Shown here piece after piece: positions 14,782-64,000 of a stretch of DNA of 64,000 nt (the stretch's first letter is position 1; each line of letters begins with the position of its first letter). This DNA is from Trichodelitschia bisporula. Its lineage: Eukaryota. The translations under genes and the position numbers were made by a program. Location: NCBI GenBank assembly GCA_010356995.1, contig ML996689.1, forward strand, positions 62,001 to 126,000, read 5' to 3'. Below the pieces are notes generated by a model. The model had not been told where the DNA came from. It was given only the letters and a program-made list of their open reading frames with translations, and ran no database searches.

Positions 14782-16058
14782 TTACATGACACCCTTCCGC
14801 TGCGGCTGCATTCCCGCCCACAGCACGATCGGCGGCCCTGTCATCCGCAGCAGCAGCAGCAGTACGCCCACACCGCTGGCCAGGATGACAGCATGTCGCG
14901 TACGCGGCCGCCGCTCGCCGAATTCGGCCCATGCGCGCAGTCCGGACGCGACCTGCTGCCGGATCGTCTCACCACCGAGCTTATAGTAGATCAATCCCGC
15001 GAGCGCGATGCTGTAGCCAAAGAACTGCGTGCCTGTAACGGGGGAGGCGAAGAGCAGGATCGAGGCCGTGACGAGGAGGATGTCTTTCAGGACGCCGCAG
15101 AGGGTGAGGACCAGGGAGGAGGTTTTGCCGATCTGCGTTGCGGTTAGTAGGTGAGTGGAAGGAGGGGAAAGGGGGGATACCAGGAGGACGAGCGAGACGT
15201 TGAGCATGAATGCGACGCTCGCGTTAGCAATGAGGTTCCCCACGCCGACGCGCCAGATGTCCGCGCTACTAATGACCGGAACCTCGACGGCGAGGGCGAC
15301 GATCCCGTTCATCAGCGCGCAGATCGGGGCGTAGTAGTAAAGGCTGACGATGGGGTCCATCTTGTACTGCGCGCTGTTGAGCAGGCGCTCAATCAGCACG
15401 AGGCGCATGGCCTCGAAGCATGTCGCGCCGGCCTGGTACAAGAATCCAGTGAGGTTGAAGTGGATCTCGCCGTATGAGGCGATTACGACGCCGAGCACGA
15501 TCACGAGGACTTTTAGCAGCGTTGGCTTGGAGAAAGGCGCTATGCCGAAGGTCCAGGTGAAGGTGAGGACGACGACCGGGTTCGTGGCTTTGAGCATTTG
15601 GATGAAGGCGACGCTGAGGTACAGGTAGGCTTTGTTGCCGCAGATCAGACTGAGACTGAAGAAGAAGCCTACTGGCATGATGGCTTTGATGTACACGCGT
15701 GGTGTCATCTTCACGCTGTGCCGCTGATCGAGCAGTGTCGTACTATGTGCCATGATTTGGGTCATTATTGTCGCAAATGCCATGTGCCACGTCGTGAGGA
15801 TAACGGGGTAGCGGAATCCGAGCGTGTCGAGTATCCATTTGTTGTACAAGATCGTGCCACTGCTGAAGGCAATCCATGCGCTGTATGTGGTGTGAGTGAC
15901 AGCCTCAAGTTGCGAGCGGTACTCGGTACTTACGCAACGTAGAAAGCGGCATGGGGCGACGACGGCTTCTCCACGGGCTTCTCCAGCAAGGTATCCACAT
16001 CCGCGCGGTCAAGAATTTCTAGCTCTTCAGAGAGCCGTTCGGGGTCCTTGGAAGCCAT
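14782..16058 (-). CDS. Triose-phosphate/nucleotide-sugar transporter family protein (TPT, CAS4-like)
   Basis: YNKWILDTLGFRYPVILTTWH, SLICGNKAYLYLSVAFIQMLKA, MDPIVSLYYYAP and IGKTSSLVLTLCGVLKDI. Introns at 15881-15933 and 15133-15180. Confidence 0.9.
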
Positions 16059-32241: not shown

Positions 32242-33078
32242 TCATGGCAGTGTAAGACTCTCCAGACTCCGGTCTACGACGGGCATGTGCGGCACCAACT
32301 GGTTCGGGTCGCGCATGACGGCGGGCACGTCGGCACGCCCGACGGCAAGCTTGCTTTTGACTTTGTCATACGTATCCTCGCGCGCCACGTACTCGCGGAT
32401 GACCTGACGCGTGGCGAACTCGACGAAGACGCGCGTGTCGCGGATGCGGAAGAGTACACCGTCGAGGCGCAGGAAGAAGCGCGACAATAGCAGTAACCGC
32501 GCAGGCATGACGCGGATCTTGCACGAAAGCATCGCAATGCCGTTGTCTGCAAGCTCGTCTTCGTAGAGCACGACCTCGTCGAAGAAGATTATGGGATCGG
32601 GCCGAGTAAGCAGATGCAGTGGGATCTCGGCATCCGATGGTGACAACGGCGGTCCGGTGGTTGTGCCTTTGAAGTCGGTGCTGTACGACCAGTCGAAGGG
32701 CTTGACAACCTCCTTGATGTCCTCATGCACGTGTTGCCTGACAGTTAGCATGATAGGCGGAGGAAAACACGAACAATACCTGTTCTTCTGCCACTCCGAT
32801 GAGTACGCGACTTTGAGCATAGAGCCGCCGGTCTTGTCGACGCGGTCTAGGGCGTCAAATGCCGAAAATCCAATCGACCAGCCGCTCTGTTTATGCTCGA
32901 TGGTCACGCCGTTGTCTCCAAAGATCATCTCCGGCGGCGTGATGCCGAGCTGGGCCGTCATTTGTTCGATGGGGCCGGCCTTGAGGATGGGCAGCTTGTG
33001 CGTCGTAATGGTGAAGCCAGACTGTGTGACCGACTGACCGGCATCAGCTTGCAAAGGAAAATGAGCGGTGATGTCCAT
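32242..33078 (-). CDS. TIP41: TIP41/TIPRL type 2A phosphatase activator
   Basis: [38 protein letters not shown] and [17 protein letters not shown]. In-frame 42-nt intron at 32738-32779. Alternative start at 33102. Confidence 0.95.
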
Positions 33079-33296
33079 CTTGGACGCAGTGGGGTGGTTC
33101 ATCGTGGGCTGGTGGGTTGGTGGGGTTGTGGTGGTTCAACTGCGATCCGAAGTTGTGGTGGCTTGACTCGCAACCCGGCGTCGTGGCGCATCACGTGCTC
33201 AGTTGCCCCGCAACCAGTGTTTCATGGCATCCGAACCCTATCTCGAGCATCGCCATCACAACATCGCAACATCACCTACCAAACACTCTCTACACC

Positions 33297-34569
33297 ATGG
33301 CCTCCGATCTTGAATCACGCTTCGAGGCGATTAGCATCAGCGACGAGAATGAGACCAGCGTACCGACGTACAGCAAGTCCAAGGTTCGTCGTCTGCAATT
33401 ATTCACGTTTTATCTAACCTTCCAGGGCTCGCTGTCCACGGCCATCACCATCACAGGTCTGGGTACCACGGCAAACCAGGCTCGCATGAAGCTCCCGCTT
33501 CAAAAACTGCAAGCACCGAATGCCAAACCAACGGCTACCATCACAAAGGTCACCCTGCCCTCGCAAGCGGCTCAGCAATTCCCAAAAGACGGCTACAGCG
33601 CCCGCACTCCACCCTTAGAGTCCGCCCTCCGCGGCTCCGAGCCGCAGCTCCTCGCTCAACCGCGCCAATTCCACCTCGGCATGTTTGAGATCGGAAAGCC
33701 GCTGGGCAAGGGCAAGTTCGGGCGTGTGTACCTGGCCAAAGAGCGGTCATCGGGCTTCGTGTGCGCGCTCAAGGTACTACACAAGTCGGAGCTGCAGCAC
33801 GGCGGCGTGGAGAAGCAGGTACGCCGCGAGATTGAGATCCAGTCCAATCTTGCGCACACCAATATCCTGCGTCTTTTTGGTCACTTCCACGACAGCAAGC
33901 GAATCTTTTTGATTCTTGAGTTTGCGGCGAAGGGCGAGTTGTACAAGCATCTGCGCAAGGAGACGCGCTTCCCTGAGTGGAAGGCTGCGCAGTACATTGC
34001 GCAGATGGCGTCGGCGCTCAAGTATCTCCATCGCAAGCACGTCATCCATCGCGACATCAAGCCGGAGAATATCCTCGTCGGGATTCACGGCGAGATTAAG
34101 ATCTCCGATTTTGGCTGGAGTGTGCACGCGCCGACGAACCGCCGCAAGACCATGTGCGGAACTCTCGACTACCTGCCCCCAGAGATGCTCAAGCCGGGGA
34201 ACAGCGATGGGTACTACAGCGAAAAGGTTGACCTGTGGAGTTTGGGTGTGTTGACGTACGAGTTTCTCGTCGGCGAGGCGCCGTTCGAAGACACGCCCAT
34301 CATGACCCAGCGGAGGATTGCACGATGTGACATGCAGGTGCCGGCTTTCATTAGCCCGGAGGCGAAAGACCTGATCAAGCGGGTATGTCTTGCCGTGTCC
34401 CTTTGTCTGGCATTAGCTGACCCAGTAGTTACTCGTTCTCGATCCTGAGAAGCGTATCCCTCTCGAGGACATCGAGCAGCACCCGTGGATCATCAAGCAT
34501 TGCGTCAAGGGCGAGCGGGCATACAACCGGGCCTCGGCGTCAAGCAAGTCGCGCAGCAGCGCCGAATGA
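33297..34569 (+). CDS. IPL1: Aurora serine/threonine kinase (Ipl1/Ark1)
   Basis: [49 protein letters not shown] and [16 protein letters not shown]. Introns at about 33384-33425 and 34383-34428. Confidence 0.95.
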
Positions 34570-34720: not shown

Positions 34721-35494
34721 CTATCTATAAATCTCATCAAACGGCCGGGTATCTGTAAAGCAGCTGTCCCACACCTCGTTAATGATGCGTGCGGCTTGTA
34801 CGTCATCTTTGATCTGAGGTCGGGCTGCGAGCGATAGCGTTGCCCGTCGCCGCACGCACTCTTGTAGTTGCTGTGTGATCTTCCATTGTCCGCGCTTGAA
34901 GAACTCGCGTGTGAAGCGGCACTCGCCACTCAGCATCGAGGCCCGAATCTCAGTGCATGCCTGGTGGCGCATGTTGTCCGGGTCGACCTTGAAGCGGACG
35001 TGGTCGTAGGCATGTACCATCTCGTGTGCCAGTGTGTCCTCGACCTGCTTGCGGTTGCGCATCTCGTTTGCGCATAGCAGGATGCCGTAGTTTGAGTCAA
35101 AGCCGCCGCTTTGGCTGGTCGTGCAGCGGCGACATCGCACGTTGTCGGAGTTGATCTCCGGGCCGATGTCTGCAATCTCCCGCTGCAGGAAGCTGACGAT
35201 GGGGCCTGGGGGCATTAGCTATGGATGTACTTTAGAACTAGAGTCGAGATGCGGCGACGCACTGTACTTGAACAACCAGTCTCTGCTCTCCTCACACCTC
35301 TTGCAGTCCGACTCCTCCTTGATCACATCCCGCGCCAACAGATACCCGCGCTTCTCCTCATCGGTGATCTCGCCCGTCAGCGCGCGAAACCACGTCTGCC
35401 ATGAATAGAAGCTGGTATCGACGTTTGCGGCCGAGTTGACCGGGACGGGGGGTGAGGCGGACGAAATATGGGCATCGGGTGAGGGGTTGGACAT
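34721..35494 (-). CDS. ATP23: Mitochondrial inner membrane metalloprotease Atp23
   Basis: [17 protein letters not shown] (HExxH), [14 protein letters not shown] and [15 protein letters not shown]. Intron at 35206-35262. Confidence 0.95.
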
Positions 35495-35749: not shown

Positions 35750-37200
35750 ATGAAGAAGCTTACTATTGTGATTAAGCTCGGTAAGTTCGCTCCGCTGTAC
35801 TGGATTAAGCTGACTTTCTAGGTACGAGCTCTATCGTCGACGAAACCACCCATGAGCCGCTCCTCTCCATTCTCAGTCTCATCGTCGAGACGGCGGTGCG
35901 CCTCAAGAAGGACGGTCACAAGGTGGTTATCGTGTCCTCTGGAGCCATTGGCACTGGCCTGCGCGAAATGGGCATGGAGAAGCGTCCGAAGCAGCTGGCC
36001 ATGAAGCAGGCACTGGCAGCCATCGGACAGTGCCAACTGATAGGTCTCTGGAAGCAGCTTTTCGGGCACATGAACCAACAAGTAGGGCAAATCCTTATAA
36101 CCCGCAACGACCTCGACGAGCGCACACGCTACCTCAATGCGCAGCAGACGCTCTTCCAGCTGCTGGAGTGGGACGCCATCCCCATCGTGAACGAGAACGA
36201 CACACTGGCCGTGACGGAGATGAAGTTTGGCGACAATGACACACTGTCTGCTATCACGGCGGGCCTGGTACACGCCGACTATCTCTTCCTCATGACAGAT
36301 GTCGACTGTCTCTACGACAAAAACCCGCGCTCCAACCCCGACGCAAAACCCATCTTCGTTGTCGAAGACTGCCAAACCCTAACCGCAGACGTCTCATCCG
36401 CCGGCTCAGCCCTCGGTACCGGCGGCATGGGCACCAAAATCGTCGCCGCGCAACTCGCCACCTCCGTCGGCGTCACCACCATAATCACCAAATCCTCCAA
36501 GCCGGGCAACGTGCGCGAAATCGTGCAGTACTGGGAAGCCCTCAAAGCCGCACAGCAAGGCAGCGCGCACAACACCCCCCCAACTTCCGGCACAAATACC
36601 CCCTCCCACCCCGTCTCGCTCGCCAACAGCTCCGTCCTCACCCCTGGGGTCTCGACGCCAGGTAGTGAGACCCCGCCGCTCGCCCCCCCGCCGCTGCACA
36701 CCCGCTTCGTGCCCGACCCGCACCCGATCCGCGACCGCTACTTCTGGATCCTGCACGGGCTGGCCCCGTCGGGCATCGTGTACATCGACGAGGGCGCGCA
36801 CAAGGCGCTCGCCAACAAAGCCGGCCTCCTACCGCCGGGCGTCGTCGACGTCGAGGGCTCGTTCGCGCAGAACCAATCCGTGCGGCTCGTCGTGGTCAAG
36901 CGTATCAAGGTTGCGGGCGAGGGCGAGCCGGCGTATGCGTCCGACCCAGCACCGGTGGAGGTCGGGCGCGCGGTGGTGAATTACTCGTCAGTGGAGATCA
37001 AGCTCATTCGGGGGCATAAGGCGTCGGATATTCGTGGCACGCTGGGGTATGCGGATACGGAGTATGTGGCGCAGAGGGAGAATGTGGCTATGTTTAAGGT
37101 GGAGAGGTCGAGGCCGGTGACGCCGGCGCCGGAGGCGGCTGCTCATACGGGGACTGCTACGACCGCTGCTGCGCCGGCTGCGGCTACGACCGAAGCTTGA
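35750..37200 (+). CDS. PRO1: Glutamate 5-kinase with PUA domain
   Basis: IVIKLGTSS across intron 35781-35821, IVSSGAI, ALAAIGQ, PIVNENDT, FGDNDTLSA, GTGGMGTK and a C-terminal PUA domain. Confidence 0.96.
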
Positions 37201-39074: not shown

Positions 39075-41481
39075 CTACTTCTCATCCCCAAAGACCTTCA
39101 CCGTCCACATCCCCCCAGCTGACAGACAATGCTCCCCCACCCCCCCATCCTCACCCACGACCACCTCACCCACCTCCTTTCCCCCCGCATCCACCACGCT
39201 CGCCCGATCCCCCGGCTTAGTATGATACAGTCTGATCTCCCCCCCCTCCCCAACCCAGTCATACCCAAACCCGCCCTCCCCCTCCTCAGCCCCAACCAGC
39301 AACACCGTCCCCTCCCTCACATAAAGCGGCAACGTCCCAAACCCATGCTTCTCCTTGAGCCACCTGGGGCCCACCACCGTCCTCCCATCCCACCAACTCG
39401 TCCACTTCCCCTCAGGCAGATAAACATCCACCTCCCCCCCCTCCGTATACACCGGCGCCACCAGCAGCGCGTCCCCGAGCATGAACTCGCGATCCACGCT
39501 CCACGCCCCCGGATCATGCGGGAACTCTAGCGCCACAGCGCGCACACTCACAGGCCATCCCTTCAGCGCCCCCTCCACCGCCTGCGCCAATATATACGGC
39601 ATCAAACTCCTCTTCACCCTCGTAAACGTCCTCAACACCCCCGTCGCACTCTCCCCCCCCTCCCCCTCCTCAATAAGCCACGGCACGCGATAACTCCCAC
39701 TCCCATGCAGGCGGCTATGACTGCAGAACAACCCCGTCGCCACCCAGCGCTTGTAAATCCACGCCGGCGGCCGCCCCTCAAAGCCCCCGATATCCATGGA
39801 CCAGAAACTGAATCCCCCGAGACCGAGACTCAGTCCGCCGCGTAGGGACTCTGCGAGTCCGGCCATAGTGGACTCGCTGTCGCCGCCCCACACGAGGGGG
39901 AAGCGCTGGGTGCCCGTCGTCGCCGTGCGCGCGAACAGGACCGCTTGCCCTGGGGCATGCGCGTCGAGAGCGCGGTATACGAGCGCGTTATACGCGAACG
40001 CGTAGTAGTTATGCATGCGCGCCGGATCAGACCCGTCATGCCACGCGACTCCCTCGTGCGGAATCCTTTCGCCGAAGTCCGTTTTCAGGCAGTCGACGCC
40101 CGCATCGAAGAGTTTGCGCAGGCAGCCGACGTACCACTCGCACGCCGCGGGGTTAGTAACGTCGATGAGGCCCATGCCCGCCTGCCAGAGATCCCATTGC
40201 CAGATGGACCCGTCGGTGCGCTTGAGCAGATACCCGTTCTGCGCCGCGTGGGTGAACACAGGGGATGCCTGGCCCAGGTATGGGTTTATCCACGCGCAGA
40301 CCTTGCGCGTGAGGCCGGAGGCTTTGAGACGTGCGATGGACTCCGCAGGCGCCGGGAAGGCCTGCGTGTCCCACTCGAAGTCGCACCAGTGGAAGGCGCG
40401 CATCCAGAAACAATCGTAGTGGAAGACTTCCACTGGAATACCCCGCTCGGTCATGCCCTCCAGAAACCCGCTGACCGTGGCCTCATCGTACTCCGTCGTG
40501 AAGCTAGTGGTGAGCCAGAGGCCGAAGGACCAGGCTGGCGGGACGGGGGCGCGGCCCGTGAGGATGGCGTATTTGGTTAGGACCTCTTTAGGGGTCGGGC
40601 CGTGGATCAGGTACCACTTGAGGCGCTGGCCGGAAACGGAGGCTTGCACGCGGGAGCAGCGCTCCGAGCCGATTTCCAGGTCCACGGCGTCGGGCGTGTC
40701 GATGAAGATCCCGTAGCCCCGCGACGAGAGCCAGAAGGGGATGTTCTTGTACGCGAGGTCGGAGGACGTGCCACTGTCCCCATTAGCCCCCTCAACCCCG
40801 AAAGCCAACGCACTCACCCATCCTCATTCCAAACCCTCACACTCTGCCCCACCTTATTCCACGCGCCAAACCTCTCCCCAAGCCCATGAACACTCTCCCC
40901 AACCGCAAGATCCGTCTGCGCAAACACGAAGTGCTCGAATCCGCGCATGTCCCCCGTGGCCTTCATATTTCCCGGCGGCGGAGTCATCGCAAAGCCCACA
41001 CTCCTAAAGCCCAAGCTCGTAACCTCCCTCCCCTCGCCATCCGTAAACGCAAGGCTGAAATTCCGCCTATCCGCGCCCACACTAACACCCAACCCCCCAC
41101 TCCGCAGCGTAACCGCGCCATCATCCTTCCACTCCAGCTCCGGGTTCACCTCGGGCTTGCCGTCGGGATAGAGCTCGAAATGCGGTCCCGGCTGAAGATC
41201 CCCCTTCCAATGCACCACCTCAAGCGAAATAACCCCATCAAACGCCGCCTCGAGGTTAATCGTCAGGGTCGGACAATTAAGCGTATCCCCACGGTCGCGG
41301 ATCTGCTTCGTTGGACAAAGCAACTCAAGTCCATGTGCCGCCGTTTCTTTAACCGTGTAGATATGCTCCGCATAACTGACCGCCTTGTCCGCGGCCGTGA
41401 GCCACATGCCTAGGCCCAGGTTAGCTAGCTTGCCCAGCCACAGCGGGCGCGAGCGAGCGACGTACCATCGCGGAACTTCAT
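39075..41481 (-). CDS. GH31 alpha-xylosidase, YicI/AgdD-like, no signal peptide (cytosolic)
   Basis: Spliced start MKFRDGMWL (introns 41410-41465 and 40774-40817). Motifs RGDTLN, GLGERFG, WNEDGGTSSDLAYKNIPF, WLTTSFTT, DCFWM, nucleophile KTDFGE, acid/base WSMDIGGF and SHSRLHG. Confidence 0.92.
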
Positions 41482-41872
41482 TTTGCAAGACAATGGGGTA
41501 CGATTGGGCAGAAGAGTTGACTCGCGGGCGGCGGGGTATATACGGTACCACAGTACCGTGCCCTGCCCGGCTGCGGAGGAATTAAGTTACCTCAAGCAAT
41601 GGGCCGGGGGTGTGCGCAATTGCCCCGGCCGGGATGGGCCGGTCGGCGCGGCTGGGGGTGCGGGGTGGCGCGGGGCGCGAGGCTCGGGGCGCATCACAGC
41701 GTGGCATGATGGGGTGGCAGGTTACAAGCTTCGGAAACAAGAGTTCGGCTGGTAGTGCTTGTCGCTATGCTACCATACCCCACATCGCAAGCTAGTTCAA
41801 GCTACCCTGCCATGAGCTAACAGTAGCTACCCCACCACGAGCTATCCCGAGCTGTCCTACTGCCGTCCAAAA

Positions 41873-43607
41873 TTAGACCTTCAACCGCGTTGCTAGAATC
41901 CAAGCCGCGGTGTAGAAAACCTGTCCGCGTCAATGGCCATGTTACGACGGCGATGTCACGACAGCTCGGAGAACTTACTACGGAAGCAAAATACGGCGCG
42001 CCGAGCCCCGCGCCGCCGATCCCAATACCCGCGGCCCAAATAGCCGTCATCAGCGGCGTGCCGACTAGCGTGCCGACCGTGCGGGCGAGCATCACGATGC
42101 CGTAGTCCTGCGTACTTGCGCCGATGTGCTCGTCGGTTACGGCGCGGCTTTTGATGAGCGACATGGTGAAGACAGGGAGGGCGGAGCCGGAGGCGTAGAT
42201 TACGAAGGCTAGGTGGGGGATTAGTTCTAGCTTGCGGGGCGGAGAAGGGGGGACGGACAGATGATTAGCATCCACATTTTTGAGGATAGGGCGATGCAGA
42301 GGGCGCCGAGGACGGAGAGGAGTAGGGTGAGTTTTGTGCCGGCGCGGTTTATGGCTGTGCCGTCTAGTGCGGAGCGCGTGAGGAGGCAGCGGACTGTTGT
42401 TGGGACGATGATGGTCAGGCATATGATGTTGACTGCTGCCTTGAGGGAGAGCAGGTAGCCCGCCTATACTGTCAGAAGCCACCTCCGGCGCCGCAAGGAC
42501 AGTGATCTCACATCGGCAAATGTCCACCCGTACCGCTTCGAGATGTACTGCACCAGTACAGGCGTATTCGAGCTCGCCAGCGACGCAAGGCTGAAAATGC
42601 CGAGCAGGATACTGAAGTTCGTGCGGCGGATAGGTAGCTTCTTGATGGTGGATAATCCTTCGGCGAACTTGCTCACCGCACGGCTGAGCATGCTCTGCTG
42701 CCCGCCTCGTGGGACAGGGTCGAGCAATGAGCTGCGCTCTGCCTCATCGCCGCGCTCGCGAAGTTTGGCCTTGACCAAGGGTCGATTCGGAAGCACCAGA
42801 AGCAGCGGCATTGCAGCGAGCAGCAGTCCAATGCCGAGCCAGAACGGCGCCCAAAGATTCCAGGTCATGGTGCGCGCGGCGATGGACGGGCTGAGCAGGG
42901 CCACGATGTACGAGACGGAAGATTGGTACGCAAAAGCGGAGGAACGATGCATCTCAGTGCTCGAGATCTCGATGATGACGCTCGCGATGCTAGACTGGAT
43001 GACGCAGTCCCCGCCGCCAAAGAGCGAGAACAGCGGCGCGAAGAGCATGGCGTAGGTGGGTATGGTGTCGAAGTAGCCTAGCCGTCAGACGTCTTCCGCA
43101 TAGCGTACAGTACACATACCAACAACCACAAGCCACGAGTACATCAGCGCCAAACCGCCCAAATTCGCGCACAAAATAACCCTCCTCCACCCGCGATCCG
43201 CAAGCACGCCCAGCGGAAGTGTCACCAGCAAATCTAACCATCAGCCGCATCCCCACCAGCACACCAGCACACCAGCACCTACCACAAACCACATGCCCCG
43301 TCTCCAGCATCCCCACCAACCACGCCAAGCGCGTCTGAATACCATCCAACTTACACAGCCTTTCAGGCACATCCCCCCCCGGCCCAACCACGCCCGGATC
43401 CCGCTCGAGGTAATACTCGCGACAATACCGCAACTCAACCACACGCGTGAGCGGGAGGTTCATCATGCGAACCGCCATGTTCTGGCACGCGAGCAGGGCG
43501 AGCAGCGCAGCGAGCCGGAGCGCATAGCGGGGATCTTTGGGCGGAGGCGCGGCTGGCGCGTCTGGCGCGTCGGGGGCGGGGACGCTGGACTCAGGTGAGG
43601 CCGTCAT
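41873..43607 (-). CDS. MFS transporter (SLC46/UstT-like clade), multi-exon
   Basis: TRVVELRYCREYY..VPERLCKLDGIQTRLA, FSLFGGG, VQYISKRYGWTF and LGAPYFAS. Several short canonical introns. Confidence 0.8.
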
Positions 43608-45439
43608 GGTTGGGTTGGGGGCTCGGGTCGGCCGTTGCCATGGCTTTTGAAGGGGATCCAGTGTGGGCTGTATTTGTTCGGAGGTTGGTGGAGTGTGAAG
43701 GTAGGCCCGCGGCGGGATGGGTGTCGATCGTGGTGAATGGTGTTGTCCGCACGCCAGTAGGTCCGTGCACGTGAGGCGTTTCGTACGTTCAGCCTTCCTC
43801 ACAAATGGGAGTCCTCTCGGGTTCTTGAGTACGGATATTATGCAGGTCTCAGTACAGCATAATTCAGCCGTGACATTAGCTCCCCACATAGACTTTAATC
43901 GTCATTATAGCAGTGCAGTACGGTGACCTGTGAACGATGCGATAGGCTTATCGATAAGGACATATCACTGCTTTGAGCCAAAGAGAAGCTGCCTTCTGGC
44001 CATTATCGTCGAATACCACAACAGTCTTTGAGCGATCAAAGCGAGCTGGAACAGGTCTGGGAACCCATAGCTCAAGAAGCCCAGGCGGTAAGTCCTCTTT
44101 AAGCTCGGTCGGGCGCTCAAATCTCCGGGCCCCACTGGCGGCCTCTAAGGCGACACTCTCGTCAGCAAGTTGGCAGGTACTTGAGGACAGAGACTTGCCA
44201 GTCCCAAAATCCCGCGCTCCTGGGATTTTCTAACTTGCAGAAATGGCTTTGGCATGCACGAACAATGTGTATCTCTTGCTGACGCCCGCATGTCCTAACG
44301 TCCTAGCTGTTGAGATGGACCACTCCCGTCCATTTGCCCAATACGGTCATCTGCACAGCCGCCGTTTCCGCAGTTCCCACTCATCAATGCAGAAAAAGCC
44401 CTGCAGACGAATGCCCCGCCTCACTTAACCACCGCCCCAATGCATTACCTGCTAGCAATACGCATATGAAGCCGCGAAAGTGGATCCAATACCGCCCAGA
44501 ATTGTTCGGAGCTTTGGAGTGAAGAAAGCTTCCACGACGTTGTGGGGCAGCAGTATCCAGTGATGCAGGAAGACGAGTCAAGAACCTGCATTCCCTCCGC
44601 AAACCGTCGACATCGGAGAAGTGTCTCGGCAGGACTGCAGCGATCGGCGGGTGGCTGCAGATGGCGTTGTTAGGGACGGGAGGCCGGAAGGAGCCGTGCG
44701 GGGCACGAGGGGAGGGGCGGGGGCGGGGCAGGTGGAATGCTCCGTTGGCGACGGCATTGGCGATGTAATGTGGCATCGGACAGTATTTTCTCTGCGAATC
44801 TTGCTAACACCTCGTACTCGGTTGTACGTGGTGTCGCTGTCTTCAGTTCGGCCTTCGGAGTATGGCAGTCACGGCCCAAGGGGCCTTATGTAAACAGCAT
44901 ATTGTACCCCACAAGCGCTTTCGACGCCCCGCAGGAATGCAGGTGCAATGCCCAACCATGAACATCCATTTTGCATTGCAGCACACTAACCACGCACAGA
45001 GAATACGAGGCATACCGCCTGACTCTTCTCTTCTTGCTGCGAAGGTAAGCGCGGCAGCAGAGAATGCGTTGGTGTTGTGGAGCCTGGGATGTAGCTGGTC
45101 CTCTCACTTCAGCCACTAGTTCATTCCCTCGCCTGGATCCGAGTGGAGCGATGCATGATAGGCTAGTGGTAAGGCAGAGAGCAAATATCTGAGGAGAGTG
45201 GGAATGATGGGATCCGGAGGGTAATACAGGTGGGGCTATCAGAATGGCTGGTGGGAGATTCAGTTCGGCAAAGTCCAGAGTGTGGTGATGGCCTGGCGAG
45301 CTGAGGGGTAGTATGAGAGCCCTTTATCTTCAGGGAAGAGCTACAGTTCAAGGAGACACGTGCAGTGGTGACGGTGTGATGTGAACGATTAGACAAAGGC
45401 GAAGAGAGAAAAGAAGAGAGAGAGACGAAGCTAAACTAA

Positions 45440-46782
45440 AATACATGCGGCGGTCCGGCGGCGCACGCGGGCCCTCGTCCCCCTGCCCGTCCTGGGCATC
45501 GCCGTCCTCGAAGGCACGGCTGATGATGTCATCCATGCCGACGGTGTACGACAATGGACGAGCCGAAGGCGGTTTGCGAGGGACCCGGGACACCCTCAGC
45601 CTCATCCGCAACAGGCGCGTTGCCGCCCGTCCCTGTCTGCACATAGCTGTACTCACGTCCCATGTGTGCTTTCCTTTCATCATGCGTACCTTCCGTCATG
45701 AGCGGCCTTCCAGGCTAACATGCTCCTTCACGGACACGCAGGGCTGTGGGGATCTCATTGGGAGACAGGCCAAGCCGAGTGATTTTCGCGTTGTTCAAGG
45801 AGTCTTGAATTCAGCCAACGGTATCCGGTCGACTCGACCTTGAACGCGTCCTCGGGGAGCGACCGACTCGCGGCCATGCCCGATGTTCAATCCTTTCATT
45901 CCAGTACTGAAAACCCCGCTTCAAATGTTTCTGACAATGTCAGGTATGAGCGCCTTGACGGTCGGGTACTGACGATCCGGAAACGTAGAAAACCCAGTCA
46001 TCTTGAGCCCTGTTTACTAACATGTGGAGATAGCATTTCAATGGGAGCCCTCCCGAAGGTCGGTAACAAAAGCCTACGCCGGTTGTTAGTACTCCCTAGG
46101 GCGGGGGATGTAGATGTCGTATACCGTACATACCTCCATCTTCCTGGTCGTTTTGGACTTGTATTGCCTAATTCCGTCCATTACAATCTTCCGTCCGACG
46201 TCGTACTCCCATCCAAGCGGGCCGTTAGCGGGGCCGAATACCTCCGTCCAAGCATCGTCAACCTGGAAGCTTGATGTGTAGAGGAAGGCCTCTAAGCGCG
46301 CCCTAACAGAGATGATGCGCATCCGCTGGTCAGTTGCCGCTTCGGCTTCCTGGACATCCTGCTGCATCTAGGCCTTGGCTCGGCGCTTCCGCTTCTTGGA
46401 CGCTCCTTCGAAGCGCTCATGAATAAGCAGCTCGCGGGGCATGGTGCTGATCCATTGTGACCCTCTGCCCGGGCGGACCTGTTCTTATTAGCATAAGCAT
46501 CAAACTTTGCGGCGTAAACTCACAATCTGAATACTCGCGTTCGCATATCAGCTTCTACTCCTTCCCCATTTGCTACGCAGGGGGGTTTTTCATTGGGTGG
46601 TGGATTGCCGGAGGAAGGAGATATTCCCCACATTTTGAGGACTTTGTCCACTTCTTGGTATTGGTGTTCAAACGGTCTGGACATTGTAGAGGAAAGGCAG
46701 TGAGAAATGCAAGAAATCCCTTACATAATCACCTTCGGATATTCTTCACGGCACCACTCGTATCTGAACGTCGGGCTGCCAT
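45440..46782 (-). pseudogene. Decayed multi-exon gene of unknown function
   Basis: ATG at 46782. Intron-like segments 46677-46732, 46479-46523 and 46074-46133 join exons in one frame, interrupted by TGA (46548-46550), TAG (46368-46370) and further stops. The 3' boundary is approximate. Confidence 0.45.
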
Positions 46783-47304
46783 TGCGGTGTGGTGTGACGA
46801 AAGTAAACGGCTGTTTTGACTGATATCGGCATCAGCTTGGAGCGAAAATGAACAGCCAACATTCAGAGGAAGTTTGGAAGATGGCTTGCATGAATTGAAT
46901 GATGGGTTGCATGACGGCACGAGTGATGAACGAGCGATACGATGAAGGATGGGCTGAGTGATGGGTTGAGTGATGAAATGAGTGATGGGTGGAGGTGTTG
47001 GGTTGAGGTGTTGGGTTGAGGGTTGAGGGTGTTGGGTTGAGGTGTTGGGTTTTTATGGGGAGGTTGAGACTTGAAGTTGGGAAGGAGCCGTGGAGGTCTC
47101 GACTAGGGCTACACAACCTCAGCATCATGGCCTTCCTCACAAATTTACACTCTCAGGAAATGACGTCAACTCATACGAGGTAGTAGCCTAGCGTTGGCTA
47201 CAGCATTCATTTTGTACCGACACCGAGATTTGACACAATTAATCGCCAGTCATGTCCAAGTCGCCTTCGTCCACCCACCGTTCCGCCAACATCTCCATCC
47301 TCGC

Positions 47305-49003
47305 TCATGCCTTCTCCGCCCTATGCTCCACAAGCTCGACATCCCTCTTCTCCAAGTCCTTCGGCAAGGCACCTAGCGCGCGCTCACCAAACAGCAAATC
47401 AATCTCCTCAAGCGACAGCTGCTTCGTCTCCTTGAACACGAAGTAGATAGTCGGAAACGTGATGCACGTGTTGAACGCTATGAAGATGAAGTAGAACTTC
47501 CATGTAATAGCTCCGAGAGCCTGCCTCTATCAGTTTACCACCAGGCCGAGGGATAGAGGAGACTCACAATTGGCGACACCTGCGCCCAAAACGTGCTAAC
47601 GAGCCAATTCCCGATACCAGTCGCGAACGCACTGCCCCGCGCACGGATCGGCATCGGCATGACTTCGCTGGCGTATGTCCAGGATATGGGACCGAAGGAC
47701 AAGCTGAAGATCACGGTGACGCAGAAGACAAAGAACACGCCTGCGATGCTCATGCCGTGGTTCGGGTGGTCGTTGTCGATGCGCGAGCCGATGACCGCGA
47801 CGCAGATGAGCGCGACGGTGATGCCGACCGTACCGAAGAGGAGGGGACGCCGACGGCCGACGCGGTCGGACAGGAACCAGATGAAGAATAAGTCTGATGA
47901 CAGGTTAGGGAGAGGAGGGGTGGAAGAGGGTGGACCGACTCGTCACTGGGCCTACGACGTTGTAGATCCCCGTTACCAGTAGATTCTTGCTCCCTGTGAT
48001 GCCCAGGATCTTGTACATGATCGTGGCGTAGTAGCCGAAGACGTTGACTGTGTTGTGTTAAATCTGTTCTTTGGGACGAGGGTGGGTACCGTACTCCCGG
48101 TGAACTGCGTGAAGACTTGCATCAGGGTCGCATGCATCAGCCGCGTCCGCCATTGCGGCACCGTAAACATAACCTTCCAGCCGGGCGCCGTGATAGCCTT
48201 CTCCGCCTCGATGGTAGCCTTGATCTCGTTGAACTCTTGCAAGATCCACTCCTCGTTCTGGCCATTGAAGTGGAGTTTCCTCAGCTGCGAAGGTCAGCCC
48301 CACCCCTCAACAACAGCAGCATACATACCACCTGCAGCGCCTCCTCCGCGCGATCCTTCTCGACCAACTGGCGCGGACTCTCAGGGAAGAACAGCAAGCC
48401 GAAGATGATAACCGCGCACGGCACCACCTGGAACGCCAGCGGAAAGCGCCAACTAAACGCAGAGTTCGGCAGCTTGCTGCTCCCATAGCCGACCCACGTC
48501 GACACAATGAAGCCGACTCCAATCATCTGCTGCGTTATGCCGATCAAGAAGCCACGGGTCTTCGGATGCGCACACTCGCTCTGGTAAACCGGCACACTCA
48601 TACTCATGAGCCCAACCGCCCACCCCGCCAGCACGCGGCCCACAAGCATCATCGCCAGATTCTGCGCTGCGGTCTGCAAAATCGCGCCGAAAAGACAGAT
48701 GATTGCGCCCATCTGGATCGTCCACCGCCGCCCAATCCGGTCCATGACGAAGCCGCCCATGAGAGAGCCGAGACATGCGCCGCCGTTGAACACGCTGTTG
48801 ATCGCGCCGATGATGGGGCTTGTGTCGATGGTGTTGAAGAAGTGCAGGAAGTGCGGCGATTGGATCACCTCAGTCATCACGCCGGCATCGTAGCCGAAGA
48901 GGAAGGACCTGGCCCGTCAATCAGCCTTGCGCTCGTCCAGAGGCAGAGCAACTCACCCCGTGCCCGCAAACACGGCCAGCGCCGCTGTGAACCACACGCC
49001 CAT
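47305..49003 (-). CDS. Sugar porter (SP family) MFS transporter
   Basis: GSFLFGYDAG, DRIGRR, PVYQSECA, WRFPLAFQ, PESPRQL, QFTG, GPISWTYASEV and KETKQLSLEEID. Multi-exon. Confidence 0.93.
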
Positions 49004-49970
49004 GATGACTGGCGATAGAAAATTCCCACGTCGTTGAAGGTTTCCAGAAACGCACGCTCAGGACCAGCGCCCGGGATAATACAGACAAATATATCGCTCC
49101 GCCGGGATAGCCCTCGGCGCACCTTCGGCCGCTCTAAGTGTCCTCCCCCGCCCACACGTTACACCCACCAGCGACAGCGCAGCAGCGGCGCGTCGTATAG
49201 TTCTAGCGCAGCGCAGCAAGCCAGCAAAAACTAGCCTCCGTCCGCGCAGGTCTCGCCATCTCGTCCCCTCCCCGGCCTGGGATCGGGGTTTTGAATTCCG
49301 GGAAAGACCGCGGTCCGGGCCTGATGCGGGCGGCATATTTCCACCTATCCACCGAGGGAGTTTTGGACATGGTCGTGCCTGGTTCATCGCGTGCGCGGAC
49401 CCCGCACTCGTTGGTGGCTCGCTAATGCGCGCGCATGGCGAGGCTGGGACCCCGCATGTAACGCTGGGGTGACGGCGCTAGGGCGCCACAATGGCACCTT
49501 GATTTGACGTCCCCACTTGGCTGCTGCAACGGCCTCGAGGACCGCGCCGTTGTAACTCTGGGGAAGCGTGCGCGTGGGGAAGAGGCGGGAACATAGCAGG
49601 TAGCGGCGGGAATGTGGGAAATCTGGGGTGCGGCATGAGTCTTGCTAACGGTGGGGAGGGGGAAATCCCGTTGAAAGGACTTGTTGCCGGGGTACGGCTG
49701 GGAAGGGTTGATTGCAATATCGCGGACGATCTAGAGAATTTTGGACGTGCCTGGTTGCGGACGGTGCTGGTTTGGCACTGACGGCGGAAAAGTATGCCCA
49801 TCGTGGTTCTGGTTTGGGTAATTGTGAGGGTAATTAGCGTTGGCTAACTAGCTGAGTAGTGTACGGAGGCCTCCGAGAGCTCAGAGCTGTCATAGCGGAC
49901 CTGGAATATTCGGATATATTAACATACCGGTACCCAGCATGACGACTTCAAGCCTTCAACCATCACCACA

Positions 49971-52373
49971 ATGCGGCTCATCCAACTCACCACGCTGGCC
50001 GCCACGGCGGTCAGCACCGTCCACGCCGTCGCCCTCCCCTCCGACGCCAGCACCCCGCTCTACAAGCAAGCAAGCGCTCCCGTCGAGTCCCGCGTCGCCG
50101 ACCTCCTCAGCCGCATGACCCTCGCCGACAAAACCGCTCAACTCATCCAAGGCGACATCGAAAACTGGCTCAACGTCACCTCCGGCGCGTTCAACGCCTC
50201 CGGTCTCGCAGACTCCATGTCCCTCAAGGCGAGCCAGTTCTACGTCGGCAAGGCCGTGCCGCAGTCCTGGATCGCTGAGAACGTGCAACGCGCTCAGGAG
50301 TACCTGGTGCATAACACGACGCTTGGTATCCCGGCGTATGTGCAGTCCGAGGCGATCCACGGCTTCCTCGTCGTCAACGCCACCATCTTCAACTCCCCCA
50401 TCGCCTACGCCTGCGCCTGGAACCCGGCCCTCGTCGAGAAAATGGCCGGCATCATCGCGCGCGAGGCCCGCGCCCTCGGCGTGAACCAGCTCTTCGCCCC
50501 GCTCGCTGATCTCGCCCGCGAATTGCGCTACGGCCGCGTCGAGGAGACCTACGGCGAGGACCCGCATTTGACGGGCGAGATCGCGTACAGCTACGTCGTG
50601 GGCCTGCAGGCGGGAAATGTGTCCGCGATGGTGAAGCACTTCGCCGGGTTTTCAGCGCCGGAGCAGGGGCTGAATACGGGGCCGGTGCATGGGGGGGAGA
50701 GGGAGCTGCGCACGACGTGGTTGCCACCGTTTAAGAGGGCGATTATTGATGCCGGGGCGTACAGTGTCATGTCTGCGTACCATTCGTACGATGGGATTCC
50801 GGCGATTGCGGATTATCACACGCTCACTGAGGTAAGTCCCCCCTAACCCCACCCCGTCGCAAGGGAGTGAAGCTAACGACCCCAGATCCTCCGCAACGAA
50901 TGGGGCTATAAATACTTCGTCGTCTCCGACGCCGGCGCAACCGACCGCCTCTGCGCCGCCTTCCACATGTGCCGCGCGAAGCCCATCGATTCCGCCGCGG
51001 TGACCATGTACGCGCTCCCCGCGGGAAACGACGTCGAAATGGGCGGCGGCAGCTTCAACTTCAAAACCATCCCTGACCTCGTGGGGAACGGCACGCTCGA
51101 CTTGTCCATCGTCGACGAAGCCGTTCGCCGCGTGCTCCGCGCTAAGTTTGCGCAGGGATTGTTCGAGGAGCCGTATACGGGTGTTTCGGCGAAGGAGGCG
51201 GAGAAATTGATCAATGCGGATGATGCGGTGCAGCTGGCACGCCAGCTGGATGCGGAGTCGATTGTCCTGCTTGAGAACCGGAATAACACCCTCCCCCTCC
51301 GCCGCGACGCGAACATCGCCCTGATCGGCCCCATGGCCTCCGGGCCCATGAACTACGGCGACTACGTCGTGTCGGGCAGCATGCTCCGCGGCGTCACGCC
51401 CCTCGCCGGCATCACCGCCGCATCCAAAGGCCACGTAACCTACACGCAGGGCTGCGATCGCTGGTCCACCTCAACCGCCTCGATCCCGGCTGCCGTTGCG
51501 GCGGCTAAGGCCGCTGACGTCGCCGTTGTGATCGTGGGCACCTGGAGCCGGGACCAGAACGAGCTATGGTCGGGCCTGAACGCAACGAGCGGCGAACACG
51601 TCGACGTTCAATCGTTGAAGCTGTTCGGCGCGATGGGGCCGCTCGTGCGCGCTGTGCTCGATGTCGGGAAACCAACTGTGGTCGTGTTTAGCTCTGGCAA
51701 GCCGGTCGCAGAGCCTGAGATCGCGGCCCGCGCATCGGCGCTTGTGCAGCAGTTTTATCCGGGGGAGCAGGGCGGGCACGCATTGGCCGATGTGCTATTC
51801 GGGGATGTGAATCCAAGCGGCAGACTGAGTGTCAGCGTGCCGCAGGACATTGGCGCTGGCCCTGTGTTCTATGACTATTTGAACAGTGGCCGCGCGGCGG
51901 GGGGGACGGTGCCGGATGTTGGTGTTGTGGGGAATGATAGCGAGGTTGTGTTTGGGCATAGCTACGTGCTCGGGACGCCGGAGGCGATGTACGAGTTTGG
52001 GTTTGGGCGGTCGTACACGACGTTCAATTACAGCGGTGTGCGGCTTGATAGAACGACGGCTGGGGCGGGGGATACGGTAAGTGTGAGTGTGGATGTGCGG
52101 AACACCGGGGACAGGGATGGGATGGAGGTTGTGCAGGTTTATGTCAAGGATGTGATTGCGAGCGTTGCGGTGCCAAATATTGCGCTGAGGGGTTTCAAGA
52201 AGGTGGCGATTGGGAAGGGGGAGAGTGTGAGGGTGGAGATTCCGATTAAGGTTGCGGATCTTGGGGTTTGGAATGTGAGGATGAAGTATGTGGTTGAGCC
52301 GGGAGAGTTTGTGGTGTTTGTGGGGGCGAGTAGTCGGGATTTGAGGGGGAATGCGACGCTGGTTGTTCGGTAG
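49971..52373 (+). CDS. Secreted GH3 glycosidase, closest in my recall to the isoprimeverose-producing enzyme IpeA
   Basis: Signal peptide, LLSRMTLADK, LIQGD, FYVG, KHF, nucleophile SDAGA, GTWSRDQNELWSGLNATSGEHVD and an FnIII-like C-terminus (WNVRMKYVVEPG). Intron at about 50832-50886. Confidence 0.9.
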
Positions 52374-54992: not shown

Positions 54993-55954
54993 ATGCCCGC
55001 AGACAACGAATCCGACATCCCCCACATCCGCAAAGAATCGCGCCCCGACTTCTCGACTCCGCCGCCAGCGAAGCAGCTCCCCAAAGCACTGCAGGAGACG
55101 CTGGACAATGAGGAGAAAGTATGGGAAGCCATGTACGACGGCACGTAAGTCAGCCGCACACCGCCCCGCCAACCCCATTTGACACCCCTCCAGAGCCGGC
55201 GAGTCAACCGACTCCTCAGTGCGCTACGCCGGCTACGCCTCCCGCGTCCGCACCATCCTCCACTCCGCCCACCGCTACGTAGCCTACACCAGCGACATAG
55301 GCGAGTCCTTCCGCCCCGTCGCGCACCCGTACCTCGTGCGCGGCGCTTATGGTGTCTCATGGGCCTATCTGGCCGGCGACGTCGCGTACGAGGGCTACAA
55401 GGCCTACCTCCAGAACCAGCGGGTGCTGAATCCGCCAGTAGCGCAAGCGAGCTCGAACGTAGGCGTGCAGACGACGCTGGGGCCCGGCGTCGCCGGCGGG
55501 AGCATGGCGGGCCAGCAGAAGGAGCTGCAGCCGCAGCCGGGGCGTGTGGTGCCGATTGAGGACTATCGGGCCGTTATGGCGCAGCGGGCTATTTTTCAGA
55601 GTCTTGCGTCTATGGGGTTGCCGGCGTTTACGATTCATAGTGCGGTTAAGTACTCGGGGCGGGCGCTGAAGGATGCGAAGAATAAGACGTTGCGCTCGTA
55701 TGGTCCAATCGGGGTACGTTCTTTGGGAGTGTCTGCCAATCATCTGCTGACTTGCATAGCTGGGTCTGGCTATCGTGCCGTTCCTCCCCTACATCTTCGA
55801 CGAGCCCGTCGAGCACGCCGTGGAGTGGGTGTTCCACACGGGCTTCAAGGCGGTAGGCGGGCCGTCGGCCGTTGGTGACCGCCCCGTCACCGGCAGAGAC
55901 CATCTGCTGGCCAAAGAAAGCAAAGCCGGTGCCCACAAAGAGAAGGAGTTGTGA
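54993..55954 (+). CDS. MTP18: Mitochondrial fission process protein 1 (MTP18/MTFP1 family)
   Basis: VRYAGYA, RYVAYTSDIGESFRPV, YGVSWAY and FQSLASMGLPAFTIHS. Two introns at about 55146-55193 and 55714-55759. Confidence 0.9.
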
Positions 55955-56375
55955 TGATAGTCCTTGTAATACAAACATCTTCGCTCTGCTCCTTTCGTGC
56001 CTTCGGGATTGGTGTTTTGTACGCCTCTGATTTTTTCTTTGTGCTGGCGGTTTTTCGGATGCCTGCCGGCGATGTCGAGGCCAGTCGTGGACGTGCAGCT
56101 GCGGGGCGTAAGTACCGCATGGCCCGTTTCTCTTTGTACCCGGCTAATAAAAAAATGCCAGGAGTGTTTGAGGACGAGGCATAATCGTACGAACGGGGAG
56201 GAAAACTCACATCCTCAACAATGGGTGAACATCGTGGCGCCGGTCACAATGTCGCGAGTAGCCATGTCGCCAGCACACAGTCCCCCATATAAACCACACT
56301 CTCACACGTACAATTCCTCGCCATCACCAGCTTCAACAGCACAGTCCGCTCTACAGCCTCGTCTTCTGCATAGCA

Positions 56376-57785
56376 ATGCCGTCCACTTCTACAGCAAAGT
56401 CTCCCGTTACTGAACACCGCATCCCCCTTTCCCCCATCGACGAAACCATAATCCGGAACTACACCCGCACAGTAACCCTCTTCCCCTTCAGCAATCAATA
56501 CCTCCGCTCCCACGCCGCCGAAAGAATCGAATCCGCCTTCCAGGCAACCCTCACCCACTACCCGTATCTCGCCGGCACCGTCCAGCGCCAATCGCCCCCG
56601 GGCAATCCTCAGCGCCGCTCCATCCACTACACCCTCCCCCCCCCCACCGTCCGCGATCTCGACCTTTTCAGGGTCGTCGACCTCTCCTCCACCTACCCCC
56701 ACACCTACCCCTCCCTCCGCGCCGCCGGTTTCCCATCCTCCGCCTTCCCACCCTCAACCTTCCACTTCTTCCCCGAAGCACCAGATCCCTCCTCCCCCGC
56801 CCCAATCCTCGGCCTCCAGGTTAGTTTCTTCACCGACGGTCTCGCGCTCGCCTTCTACTCGCACCACTCCGTCCTCGACGGCACAGGCCGAACCACATTC
56901 CTCTCCCGCCTCGCCGCGAACCTGCGCTCTGGCCGCACCGACGACCCCGCAACCGGCCCCCCCGCCGTCGCCGCGTTCCCGACCCCAACCATCCCGGCTC
57001 CGAGCGCGTTGCCGGAATTCCGCATCGCCTCCCCGGGGGAGCCATTTCCGGCCAGTTGGATATCCCACCCCTCCCCCCCACCAAGCCGAATCCTAACTTT
57101 TGCCCCCGCGACCGTAACCGCGCTCAAGAAATCCCTAAACGCACACTCGACCTTCGACGCGCTCACGGCGCTGATATGCGTGTCCATGAGCCGCGCGCGG
57201 TACGCGGCGTTCCGCGCTGCTAATCCCGGGTCCGCGGAGGAGGGCAAGGCCGATGTCCGGCCGCGCTTCGGTCTCGTGCTCGACGTGCGGGGCCGGGCGG
57301 ACCCGCCGCTTCCGAAAGGATACATCGGAAACGCGGCGCTGTATACATTCGCCACCGGTCCGACGTTCGACTCCATGATGTCGGACGCTGCGTCAGCGCG
57401 GGCGGCGGTAGCAAAGGCGATACGGGGTGCTATCGAGGAGGTAGACGGTCCCTGGGTCTCCTCCCGCCTTGCCTTCCTCGCCGCCGCGGTAGCGCGAGGC
57501 GAAGCCGAGCACGTAGGGTGCGGACTCGACTGCGCTGGGACGGACATCATGGTCACATCCTGGGCGGGTTTCAGCGGGGGCGAAGAATGGAGCATTCCGG
57601 GTGCGGGAAGCGTGGGTGCTGTTCGGAAGCCGTGGGGCCCGGTGGACGGGGGAGTGATTTTCCTGCCGCGGGTACCGGGGGGAGGGGTGGAGGTTATGGT
57701 GGGTTTGAGGGAGGGGGTTATGCGGGAGTTTNNNNNNNNNNNNNNNNNNNNNNNNNNNNNNNNNNNNNNNNNNNNNAGGGGTTGA
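56376..57785 (+). CDS. BAHD/Tri101-like CoA-dependent acyltransferase; 3' end hidden by the assembly gap
   Basis: LSPID, YPYLAG, HxxxD motif HHSVLDG, STFDALTAL, LDVRGR..PLPKGYIGNA and VTSW. The true stop is uncertain. Confidence 0.8.
   Translation: MPSTSTAKSPVTEHRIPLSPIDETIIRNYTRTVTLFPFSNQYLRSHAAERIESAFQATLTHYPYLAGTVQRQSPPGNPQRRSIHYTLPPPTVRDLDLFRVVDLSSTYPHTYPSLRAAGFPSSAFPPSTFHFFPEAPDPSSPAPILGLQVSFFTDGLALAFYSHHSVLDGTGRTTFLSRLAANLRSGRTDDPATGPPAVAAFPTPTIPAPSALPEFRIASPGEPFPASWISHPSPPPSRILTFAPATVTALKKSLNAHSTFDALTALICVSMSRARYAAFRAANPGSAEEGKADVRPRFGLVLDVRGRADPPLPKGYIGNAALYTFATGPTFDSMMSDAASARAAVAKAIRGAIEEVDGPWVSSRLAFLAAAVARGEAEHVGCGLDCAGTDIMVTSWAGFSGGEEWSIPGAGSVGAVRKPWGPVDGGVIFLPRVPGGGVEVMVGLREGVMREFXXXXXXXXXXXXXXXRG
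57732..57776. other. Assembly gap (45 N)
   Basis: Run of n characters. Confidence 1.
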
Positions 57786-63635: not shown

Positions 63636-64000
63636 TGCTGTGGTGCTTCGGGACGATGGAGGAGGATGGTGGGTTGGAGGGGTGAGTATGGGAGCTTGAA
63701 GTGCTAGCAGGTAGTGTCTCAAAGCTCCGTTGAGGTGAACGAAAGGAGAGAACAGCTCACGCGGGAGAAGCTCTCCTTATATGCATCCCCGCGCCCGCTG
63801 TCGAACCGTGGGGGCTGAAGCGGCTGACGTGCGGTATGCTGCGGGGCAAGGGTAGCTGCATGCGGTCCCGAGCTTCAGCCGTGCACCAGCTAGGACGCTG
63901 GTGGTTGGCCATGATGACATAGAAACGCGATGTTAGTCTCATAAGCAAGTGCGAACAGCTCCTCGGTTTTCTGAGAGGCGGGGCGGGATGAATGCCGCGC

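Follow-up and report, generated by a model that had tools for sequence, protein, structure and literature searches.

Gene content and gene models of the locus

We analysed a 64,000-nucleotide stretch of DNA from the fungus Trichodelitschia bisporula (GenBank assembly GCA_010356995.1, contig ML996689.1, positions 62,001 to 126,000 of the forward strand), referred to here as the window, in which three genes that may together serve the use of the xyloglucan-derived disaccharide isoprimeverose (Xyl-alpha-1,6-Glc) lie near one another. These are a glycoside hydrolase family 3 (GH3) gene of the IpeA type, a gene for a sugar porter of the major facilitator superfamily (MFS) that is transcribed divergently from it, and a glycoside hydrolase family 31 (GH31) gene of the YicI alpha-xylosidase type. 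The DNA of the window is fungal-like, at ~58% G+C. A preliminary description, made by a model from the sequence letters and a list of open reading frames (ORFs), had placed the three genes at the coordinates given in Table 1, with a 967-bp gap between the divergent porter and GH3 genes, and both Pfam domain matches and spliced gene models agree with this layout.

The gene models are backed by contigs from two public sequencing runs (X1 and X2) of one sample. The runs are of unrecorded type and marked 'RNA?'; we read the spliced contigs as transcripts. All introns in the GH3, porter and GH31 models are skipped in these contigs, with GT..AG or CT..AC ends: for GH3 the joints comprise one intron in the coding sequence and one in the 5' leader, for the porter five introns, and for GH31 one listed joint together with a loose end that reads into the 16-nt first exon. 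The three spliced models are free of internal stops, and their top database matches are all Trichodelitschia bisporula proteins. The GH3 model is 100% identical to a deposited protein (P0125) over 782 aa, the GH31 model is 99.9% identical to its counterpart (P0245), and the deposited 462-aa porter (P0005) corresponds to residues 27-488 of our model, with 100% identity. It is without the first 26 residues; run contigs back the short first exon of our model (48955-49003), with which the first membrane span becomes complete, as it is in orthologues. On the other side of the gap, the GH3 transcript contig continues for 256 nt or more beyond the leader intron in the upstream direction, and the porter and GH3 transcripts may therefore start a few hundred bases apart.

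Table 1 Features of the window, with the genes of the proposed cluster first. Positions are those of the window.
Feature	Position	Strand	Details
GH3 IpeA-type gene (isoprimeverose-producing enzyme, predicted)	49971-52373	+	ATG at 49971, stop ends 52373; exons 49971-50831, 50886-52373; 782 aa; Pfam
GH3 5' leader intron	49792-49859	+	joint 49791/49860; GT..AG ends; contigs of X1 and X2
Porter-GH3 divergent intergenic region, presumed shared promoter	49004-49970		967 bp; bounds from spliced models
Sugar-porter MFS gene, candidate isoprimeverose importer	47305-49003	-	488 aa; six exons; Pfam Sugar_tr
Porter exons	48955-49003, 48329-48906, 48095-48284, 47940-48047, 47567-47893, 47305-47519	-	five joints; CT..AC ends
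GH31 gene, predicted YicI-type alpha-xylosidase	39075-41481	-	exons 41466-41481, 40818-41409, 39075-40773; 768 aa; Pfam
MFS_1 'general substrate transporter' gene	ORF 41873-43889	-	probable start Met ~43607; five introns; Pfam MFS_1
Spliced transcript without long ORF	~45254-47500	-	introns ~46074-46133, ~46479-46523; overlaps porter 3' end
Rad4/XPC-like	1275-5447	-	Pfam scan
N-acetylglutamate-synthase-like NAT	6135-8096	-	Pfam scan
NAD_binding_2 dehydrogenase	8297-9412	+	Pfam scan
Another MFS	10644-12210	+	Pfam scan
Methyltransf_8	12928-14709	+	Pfam scan
TPT transporter	14785-16008	-	Pfam scan
TIP41	32245-33135	-	Pfam scan
Protein kinase	33072-34445	+	Pfam scan
Peptidase_M76	34724-35218	-	Pfam scan
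Glutamate-5-kinase-like	35809-37197	+	Pfam scan
MTP18	55183-55875	+	Pfam scan
Transferase + TRI-like_N acyltransferase ORF	56262-57782	+	contains the assembly gap
Assembly gap, 45 N	57732-57776		inside ORF 56262-57782
Calpain-family protease	60755-63776	-	Pfam scan

A predicted isoprimeverose-producing GH3 enzyme

The GH3 protein has a three-domain architecture, with PF00933 (Glyco_hydro_3), PF01915 (Glyco_hydro_3_C) and PF14310 (Fn3-like) spread across its two exons. When the deposited protein, which equals the window GH3, was compared with solved structures, it scored 1098 bits against Aspergillus oryzae IpeA (5yot) and 1105 bits against 21ji, a structure named isoprimeverose-producing oligoxyloglucan hydrolase; the best solved GH3 that is not an isoprimeverose-producing enzyme (IPase) was the beta-xylosidase 7zb3, at 439 bits. 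This ranking was unchanged with the two exons searched separately, the top matches being the IPases 5yot, 7eap and 21ji. No NCBIfam equivalog cut-off was reached by the GH3 protein. The motifs LIQGD and FYVG line up with the same motifs in the IpeA chains 5yot and 7eap, and the Gln of the first and the Tyr of the second were reportedly shown by Matsuzawa et al. (2019, J Struct Biol) to bind the xylose side chain. The preliminary description had named a close match to IpeA, these two motifs included, and the scores and alignments confirm it.

Comparison with characterised enzymes leads to the same placement. The window protein shares 65% identity with the A. melleus protein P0234, which scores 1378 bits to IpeA and served as our proxy for an IpeA orthologue. 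IpeA and the Phaeoacremonium enzyme PmIPase are likewise 65% identical to each other, and both release isoprimeverose and neither cleaves cellobiose (PMC6325624), so this level of identity spans two characterised members of the group. The catalytic pair of PmIPase consists of the nucleophile Asp-299 and the acid/base Glu-523 (PMC6325624). Judged by alignment position, the window protein would have this Asp and Glu in D302 (SDAG) and E524 (GEHVD), which do not vary among the 18 sequences of alignment A1 and both align with IpeA.

We also estimated a quick maximum-likelihood tree of GH3 sequences, with SH-aLRT (approximate likelihood-ratio) support only, a midpoint root, no outgroup and no IpeA sequence. 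It groups sequences roughly by fungal class, and the window protein falls among Dothideomycete-like rows, together with orthologues that include the A. melleus proxy for IpeA. The N-terminus of the protein is hydrophobic and signal-peptide-like, with a best 12-residue Kyte-Doolittle mean of 1.66, as expected of the signal peptide that the preliminary description gave this enzyme. Taken by its sequence, the GH3 protein is assigned to the isoprimeverose-producing enzymes and not to the ordinary beta-glucosidases or beta-xylosidases.

A predicted cytosolic alpha-xylosidase of the YicI type

Pfam finds the N-terminal, TIM-barrel and C-terminal GH31 domains in the second enzyme. Its large exon aligns with Escherichia coli YicI at E 7e-200, and the motifs KTD, WGGD and DCFW are aligned; we take these to be the counterparts of YicI D416 and D482, the catalytic pair, and of C307-F308, which presumably set xylosidase apart from glucosidase. 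The deposited protein scores 943.1 bits against the NF007940 alpha-xylosidase (YicI) equivalog model, for which the cut-off is 606, over protein residues 1-740. Matches to other solved chains are far weaker, at only E 2.8e-42 for the subfamily-4 enzyme MeXyl31 (5zn6) and E 3.6e-22 for the alpha-xylosidase 7wj9. The GH31 protein is accordingly classed, at the level of sequence, as a YicI-type alpha-xylosidase. Its N-terminus is of low hydropathy (best 12-residue Kyte-Doolittle mean 0.42), and the alignment with the YicI model starts at the first residue of both, and the enzyme, described from the outset as signal-less, is predicted to be without a signal peptide and cytosolic.

An Aspergillus orthologue is 64% identical to the window GH31. 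A. oryzae has three GH31 alpha-xylosidases (PMC10792220). AxyA belongs to subfamily 3, has no signal sequence and is inferred to act inside the cell; it hydrolyses isoprimeverose with a Km of 0.2 mM and favours it over XXXG and XLLG (PMC10792220). AxyB, of subfamily 5, is extracellular, and AxyC, of subfamily 4, is without a signal peptide and acts poorly on isoprimeverose (PMC10792220).

That a fungal GH31 passes a bacterial YicI equivalog cut-off, at E 7e-200 to the E. coli protein, makes an unusually close fungus-bacterium pair. An old transfer of the GH31 gene from bacteria is possible.

The sugar porter and its orthologues

The third protein is a sugar-porter MFS carrier (TC 2.A.1.1), with PF00083 Sugar_tr matched on its exons, and a crude hydropathy scan gives its hydrophobic stretches a spacing like that of a 12-span carrier. 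An orthologue (P0006) scores 339.6 against TIGR00879, for which the cut-off is 237.8, and also matches the bacterial GlcP and XylE equivalog models, below their cut-offs. Over its full length the porter shares 65-73% identity with orthologues from Dothideomycetes, Sordariomycetes, Leotiomycetes and Eurotiomycetes. Protein Atlas returned only generic sugar-porter and MFS clusters for the porter.

One orthologue has published expression data. The A. niger protein An02g08230 (P0381) is a member of the porter cluster and is 67% identical to the window porter; Delmas et al. 2012 found seven transporters, this one included, to be induced 20-fold or more on wheat straw. Its RPKM (reads per kilobase per million) values are 1.0 on glucose, 105.4 on wheat straw and 0.8 after glucose was added back (PMC3415456). 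This pattern fits an importer of plant-cell-wall sugars under carbon catabolite control and does not name the sugar. An02g08230 also appears in a table of PMC5598271, and in the accessible portions of that paper and of PMC3415456 no substrate is assigned to it.

A lead from Trichoderma reesei, Tr69957 with the GH31 protein 69944, was set aside: Tr69957 is described as maltose-permease-like, and no tie between it and the window porter was found. Neither a fungal isoprimeverose transporter nor this cluster was found in the literature, as judged by titles and the openings of abstracts, and papers in subscription journals may hold either.

Linkage of the three genes in other fungi

We assessed linkage by matching species names across the three protein-search lists, each made up of the best 120 hits, with equally long contigs taken as the same contig and the window's own species excluded; absence from a list is uninformative. 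Among the matches listed, the porter and GH3 lie on the same contig in 19 of 22 species (exceptions in Microthyrium, Pleomassaria and Amniculicola), the porter and GH31 in 24 of 26 (exceptions in Microthyrium and Aplosporella), and GH3 and GH31 in 15 of 19 (exceptions in Lophium, Microthyrium, Aplosporella and Amniculicola). Many of these contigs are short, as in Lepidopterella (11.6 kb), Malbranchea (21 kb), Chaetomidium (26 kb), Lachnellula willkommii (27 kb), Cudoniella (31 kb) and Zalerion (39 kb). Locus tags tell the same story at finer scale. They are consecutive for all three genes in Chlorociboria (g1360 GH31, g1361 GH3, g1362 porter), for GH3 and porter in Pseudogymnoascus australis (006079 and 006080), for GH3 and GH31 in Cudoniella (g8016 and g8017), and for porter and GH31 in Hymenoscyphus albidus (274 and 275); they differ by two for porter and GH31 on the Malbranchea contig (4131 and 4133), for porter and GH3 in Thermocarpiscus (5114 and 5116), and for porter and GH31 in Helicocarpus (02060 and 02062). 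Linkage is thus conserved across Dothideomycetes, Leotiomycetes, Sordariomycetes and Onygenales.

Metagenomic DNA provided a second view. Scanning contigs with the GH3 alignment yielded 71 loci, each taken with as much as 10 kb of flank to either side, on which relatives of GH3, porter and GH31 were placed by tblastn at 45% identity or more; collapsing loci whose GH3 was at least 95% identical left 51 groups. With at least 5 kb of flank on both sides (13 groups), GH31 was present in 8, the porter in 7, both in 7 and neither in 5. For the 22 groups flanked by 3 kb or more on either side, the corresponding numbers were 14, 11, 11 and 8. Three arrangements recur: GH31(+), porter(-), GH3(+) in L001, L003 and L026, which have the same head-to-head porter-GH3 pair as the window; porter(-), GH31(-), GH3(+) in L010, L011 and L031; and GH31(-), GH3(+), porter(+) in L025, L041, L046, L063 and L071. 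Intergenic gaps in these clusters are ~0.5-1.4 kb. Seven of the partnerless loci form one tight clade in the tree (L017-L021, L024 and L044), and the others are one Eurotiales-like (L066) and one Leotiomycete-like (L035) locus. Neither a fourth conserved gene nor a regulator was found in the metagenomic clusters, where the other shared ORF groups were antisense or confined to close relatives.

The linkage, which recurs in many species and on independent metagenomic contigs, is well beyond chance. Inherited synteny alone would not yield three genes kept together through changed order and orientation, and the pattern is the one that selection for clustering would be expected to leave.

The divergent intergenic region

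The 967-bp region between the porter and GH3 is presumed to be a shared promoter. It holds two XlnR-type GGCTAR sites, one of them inside the GH3 leader intron; across the window this motif is not enriched, with 36 sites observed and 52 expected. Among 18 GH3-upstream regions, the best shared 7-mer, ACCCCGC, occurred in 10 of 18 and the best 8-mer in 7 of 18, and neither exceeded shuffled sequences.

Neighbouring genes in the window

The preliminary description had missed two features between GH31 and the porter. One is the MFS_1 gene, which is expressed, with five joints in the run contigs; it has no counterpart in the 71 related metagenomic loci, and its Protein Atlas relatives are generic MFS clusters. 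It looks like a lineage-specific insertion into the cluster and is not one of the conserved members. The other is a spliced transcript, whose two introns have canonical ends, in whose spliced form there is no ORF longer than 115 aa and for whose ORFs there was no Pfam match; a long non-coding RNA, a gene for a small protein and an extended 3' untranslated region are all possible readings of it. The cluster as a whole is flanked by housekeeping genes, glutamate-5-kinase-like on one side and MTP18-like on the other, and the remaining domain matches of the window are listed in Table 1.

A proposed isoprimeverose pathway and its alternatives

Our preferred explanation, held with moderate confidence, is that these genes make up a fungal catabolic cluster for xyloglucan-derived isoprimeverose, with the porter as the putative importer. 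In such a pathway the secreted GH3 would release isoprimeverose from xyloglucan, as orthology with IpeA and PmIPase suggests; the divergent sugar porter would take the disaccharide up; and the cytosolic YicI/AxyA-type GH31 would split it to glucose and xylose, as expected from its family membership. The porter is proposed for the middle step, by pathway logic and conserved linkage, because a GH31 without a signal peptide depends on substrate that has entered the cell and because this porter is the only transporter kept with both enzymes. More tentatively, and with somewhat less than even confidence, we suggest that the porter orthogroup, An02g08230 included, represents the first eukaryotic isoprimeverose importer, of sugar-porter rather than GPH origin, within an old Pezizomycotina cluster whose other members are a secreted IPase and a bacterial-like cytosolic GH31 and which has stayed together through repeated reshuffling. 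What is new here is the three-gene linkage; the enzymes themselves are orthologues of known ones. Imported isoprimeverose could, in addition, serve as an intracellular signal for xyloglucan-degrading genes.

This interpretation must be made cautiously, as a number of observations weigh against it. Isoprimeverose is proposed as the cargo of the porter on the grounds of conserved linkage and pathway logic; the source names of porter orthologues are generic and automatic or read 'glucose transporter', and the straw induction in A. niger is just as compatible with a carrier of xylose or glucose. Neither the XlnR-type test nor the k-mer tests detected a shared promoter motif. The genes are also not tightly packed in the window, where GH31 and the porter are 5.8 kb apart with the MFS_1 gene and the spliced RNA in between. 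Nor is linkage universal: Microthyrium, Pleomassaria, Amniculicola, Aplosporella and Lophium each have at least one pair on different contigs, the 5 of 13 well-flanked metagenomic loci with neither partner point the same way, porter and GH31 tags are far apart in two A. tubingensis strains, and Aspergillus section Nigri and some other lineages are without linkage. In the Xylariales part of the tree, L064, L038 and L047 have a head-to-head GH31-GH3 pair and no porter, and only L064 among these loci has 10 kb on both sides. Finally, the equal-size criterion behind the species counts is a proxy for sharing a contig, and on megabase contigs it is no proof of adjacency.

Several alternatives may be postulated. 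The one that survives best, which we nonetheless regard as unlikely, accepts the cluster as real and has the porter import xylose or glucose freed outside the cell, with GH31 acting on alpha-xylosides that enter otherwise. The sub-threshold matches to the bacterial GlcP and XylE models and the automatic source names fit such a carrier, as do the induction of An02g08230 on straw, where its authors say pentoses dominate (PMC3415456), and the fact that A. oryzae has the extracellular alpha-xylosidase AxyB too (PMC10792220). Source names of this kind are, however, assigned automatically, and it is hard to see why, in three gene orders and across four classes, a monosaccharide porter should stay next to both an IPase and an intracellular alpha-xylosidase. 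Moreover, a signal-less enzyme whose A. oryzae relative has a Km of 0.2 mM for isoprimeverose (PMC10792220) needs the disaccharide inside.

A further possibility, which we consider less probable again, would make the porter a carrier of different small fragments of xyloglucan or of alpha-xylosides, such as XG and XX, or else mainly a sensor that brings in an inducer and not the bulk importer of isoprimeverose. IPases transglycosylate and act on XG and XX (PMC6325624), xyloglucan oligosaccharides induce the A. oryzae genes that degrade them (PMC11975219), and the present data do not separate these substrates. On the other hand, the product of an IPase is isoprimeverose, which AxyA prefers to XXXG and XLLG (PMC10792220), and nothing in the present data points to sensing. 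Lastly, that the three genes adjoin by chance or inherited synteny without a functional tie is very improbable. In its favour, the genes are not contiguous in the window, their flanks are housekeeping genes and they are unlinked in some lineages; against it, their linkage outlasts rearrangement into three different arrangements, no other neighbour is conserved alongside them, and all three fit one known biochemical pathway.

Comparison with known systems and significance

The isoprimeverose cluster that we favour has its closest enzymatic parallel in A. oryzae, where IpeA (GH3, EC 3.2.1.120) and AxyA (GH31_3) represent the same enzyme families with the same proposed division of labour (PMC10792220, PMC11975219). 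In the accessible portions of these papers the enzymes are treated singly, and neither a transporter nor a gene cluster is mentioned.

Bacterial alpha-xyloside operons offer a parallel for the transport step. The Lactobacillus xylP-xylQ genes are like those of the window in that a transporter gene lies beside an intracellular GH31 alpha-xylosidase. E. coli likewise has a carrier gene beside a GH31 gene in yicJ-yicI, and XylP and YicJ are members of the GPH family. The window porter is not of this MFS_2-type family, its matches being to Sugar_tr, MFS_1 and TIGR00879 and to no GPH-type model; the likeness to XylP and YicJ is therefore one of role only, and the carrier family differs. The fungal cluster also adds a secreted IPase to what the bacterial operons contain. 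In lactobacilli, xylP is called an isoprimeverose permease (PMC12457330).

Among eukaryotes, the yeast MAL clusters similarly combine a sugar-porter permease for a disaccharide with a cytosolic glycosidase (PMC6070925). They differ in that an alpha-glucoside and an alpha-glucosidase are involved, along with an activator, whereas here the glycosidase is a GH31 enzyme, no activator was found in the cluster, and a secreted disaccharide-producing enzyme is included. The preliminary description had likened the locus to a bacterial polysaccharide utilisation locus (PUL), and its interpretation is partly supported, with its computational checks on enzyme identity and synteny borne out. As in the PULs of Bacteroidetes, genes for handling one glycan are co-located, from its release outside the cell through import to its breakdown inside; the analogy is a loose one, since the window cluster is without a SusC/SusD pair, a sensor or regulator, a fourth gene or an operon, and its three-gene linkage has been lost in several lineages.

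The signal-less alpha-xylosidase of A. oryzae has had no known route of entry for its substrate, and the conserved cluster names a specific candidate for this missing step. The candidate importer has an orthologue in a tractable species, An02g08230 of A. niger. More broadly, the cluster adds a clear case to the few sugar-catabolic clusters known from fungi, and an isoprimeverose importer coupled to a cytosolic GH31 enzyme would, if the proposal is true, be useful for yeasts engineered to grow on xyloglucan-derived sugars.

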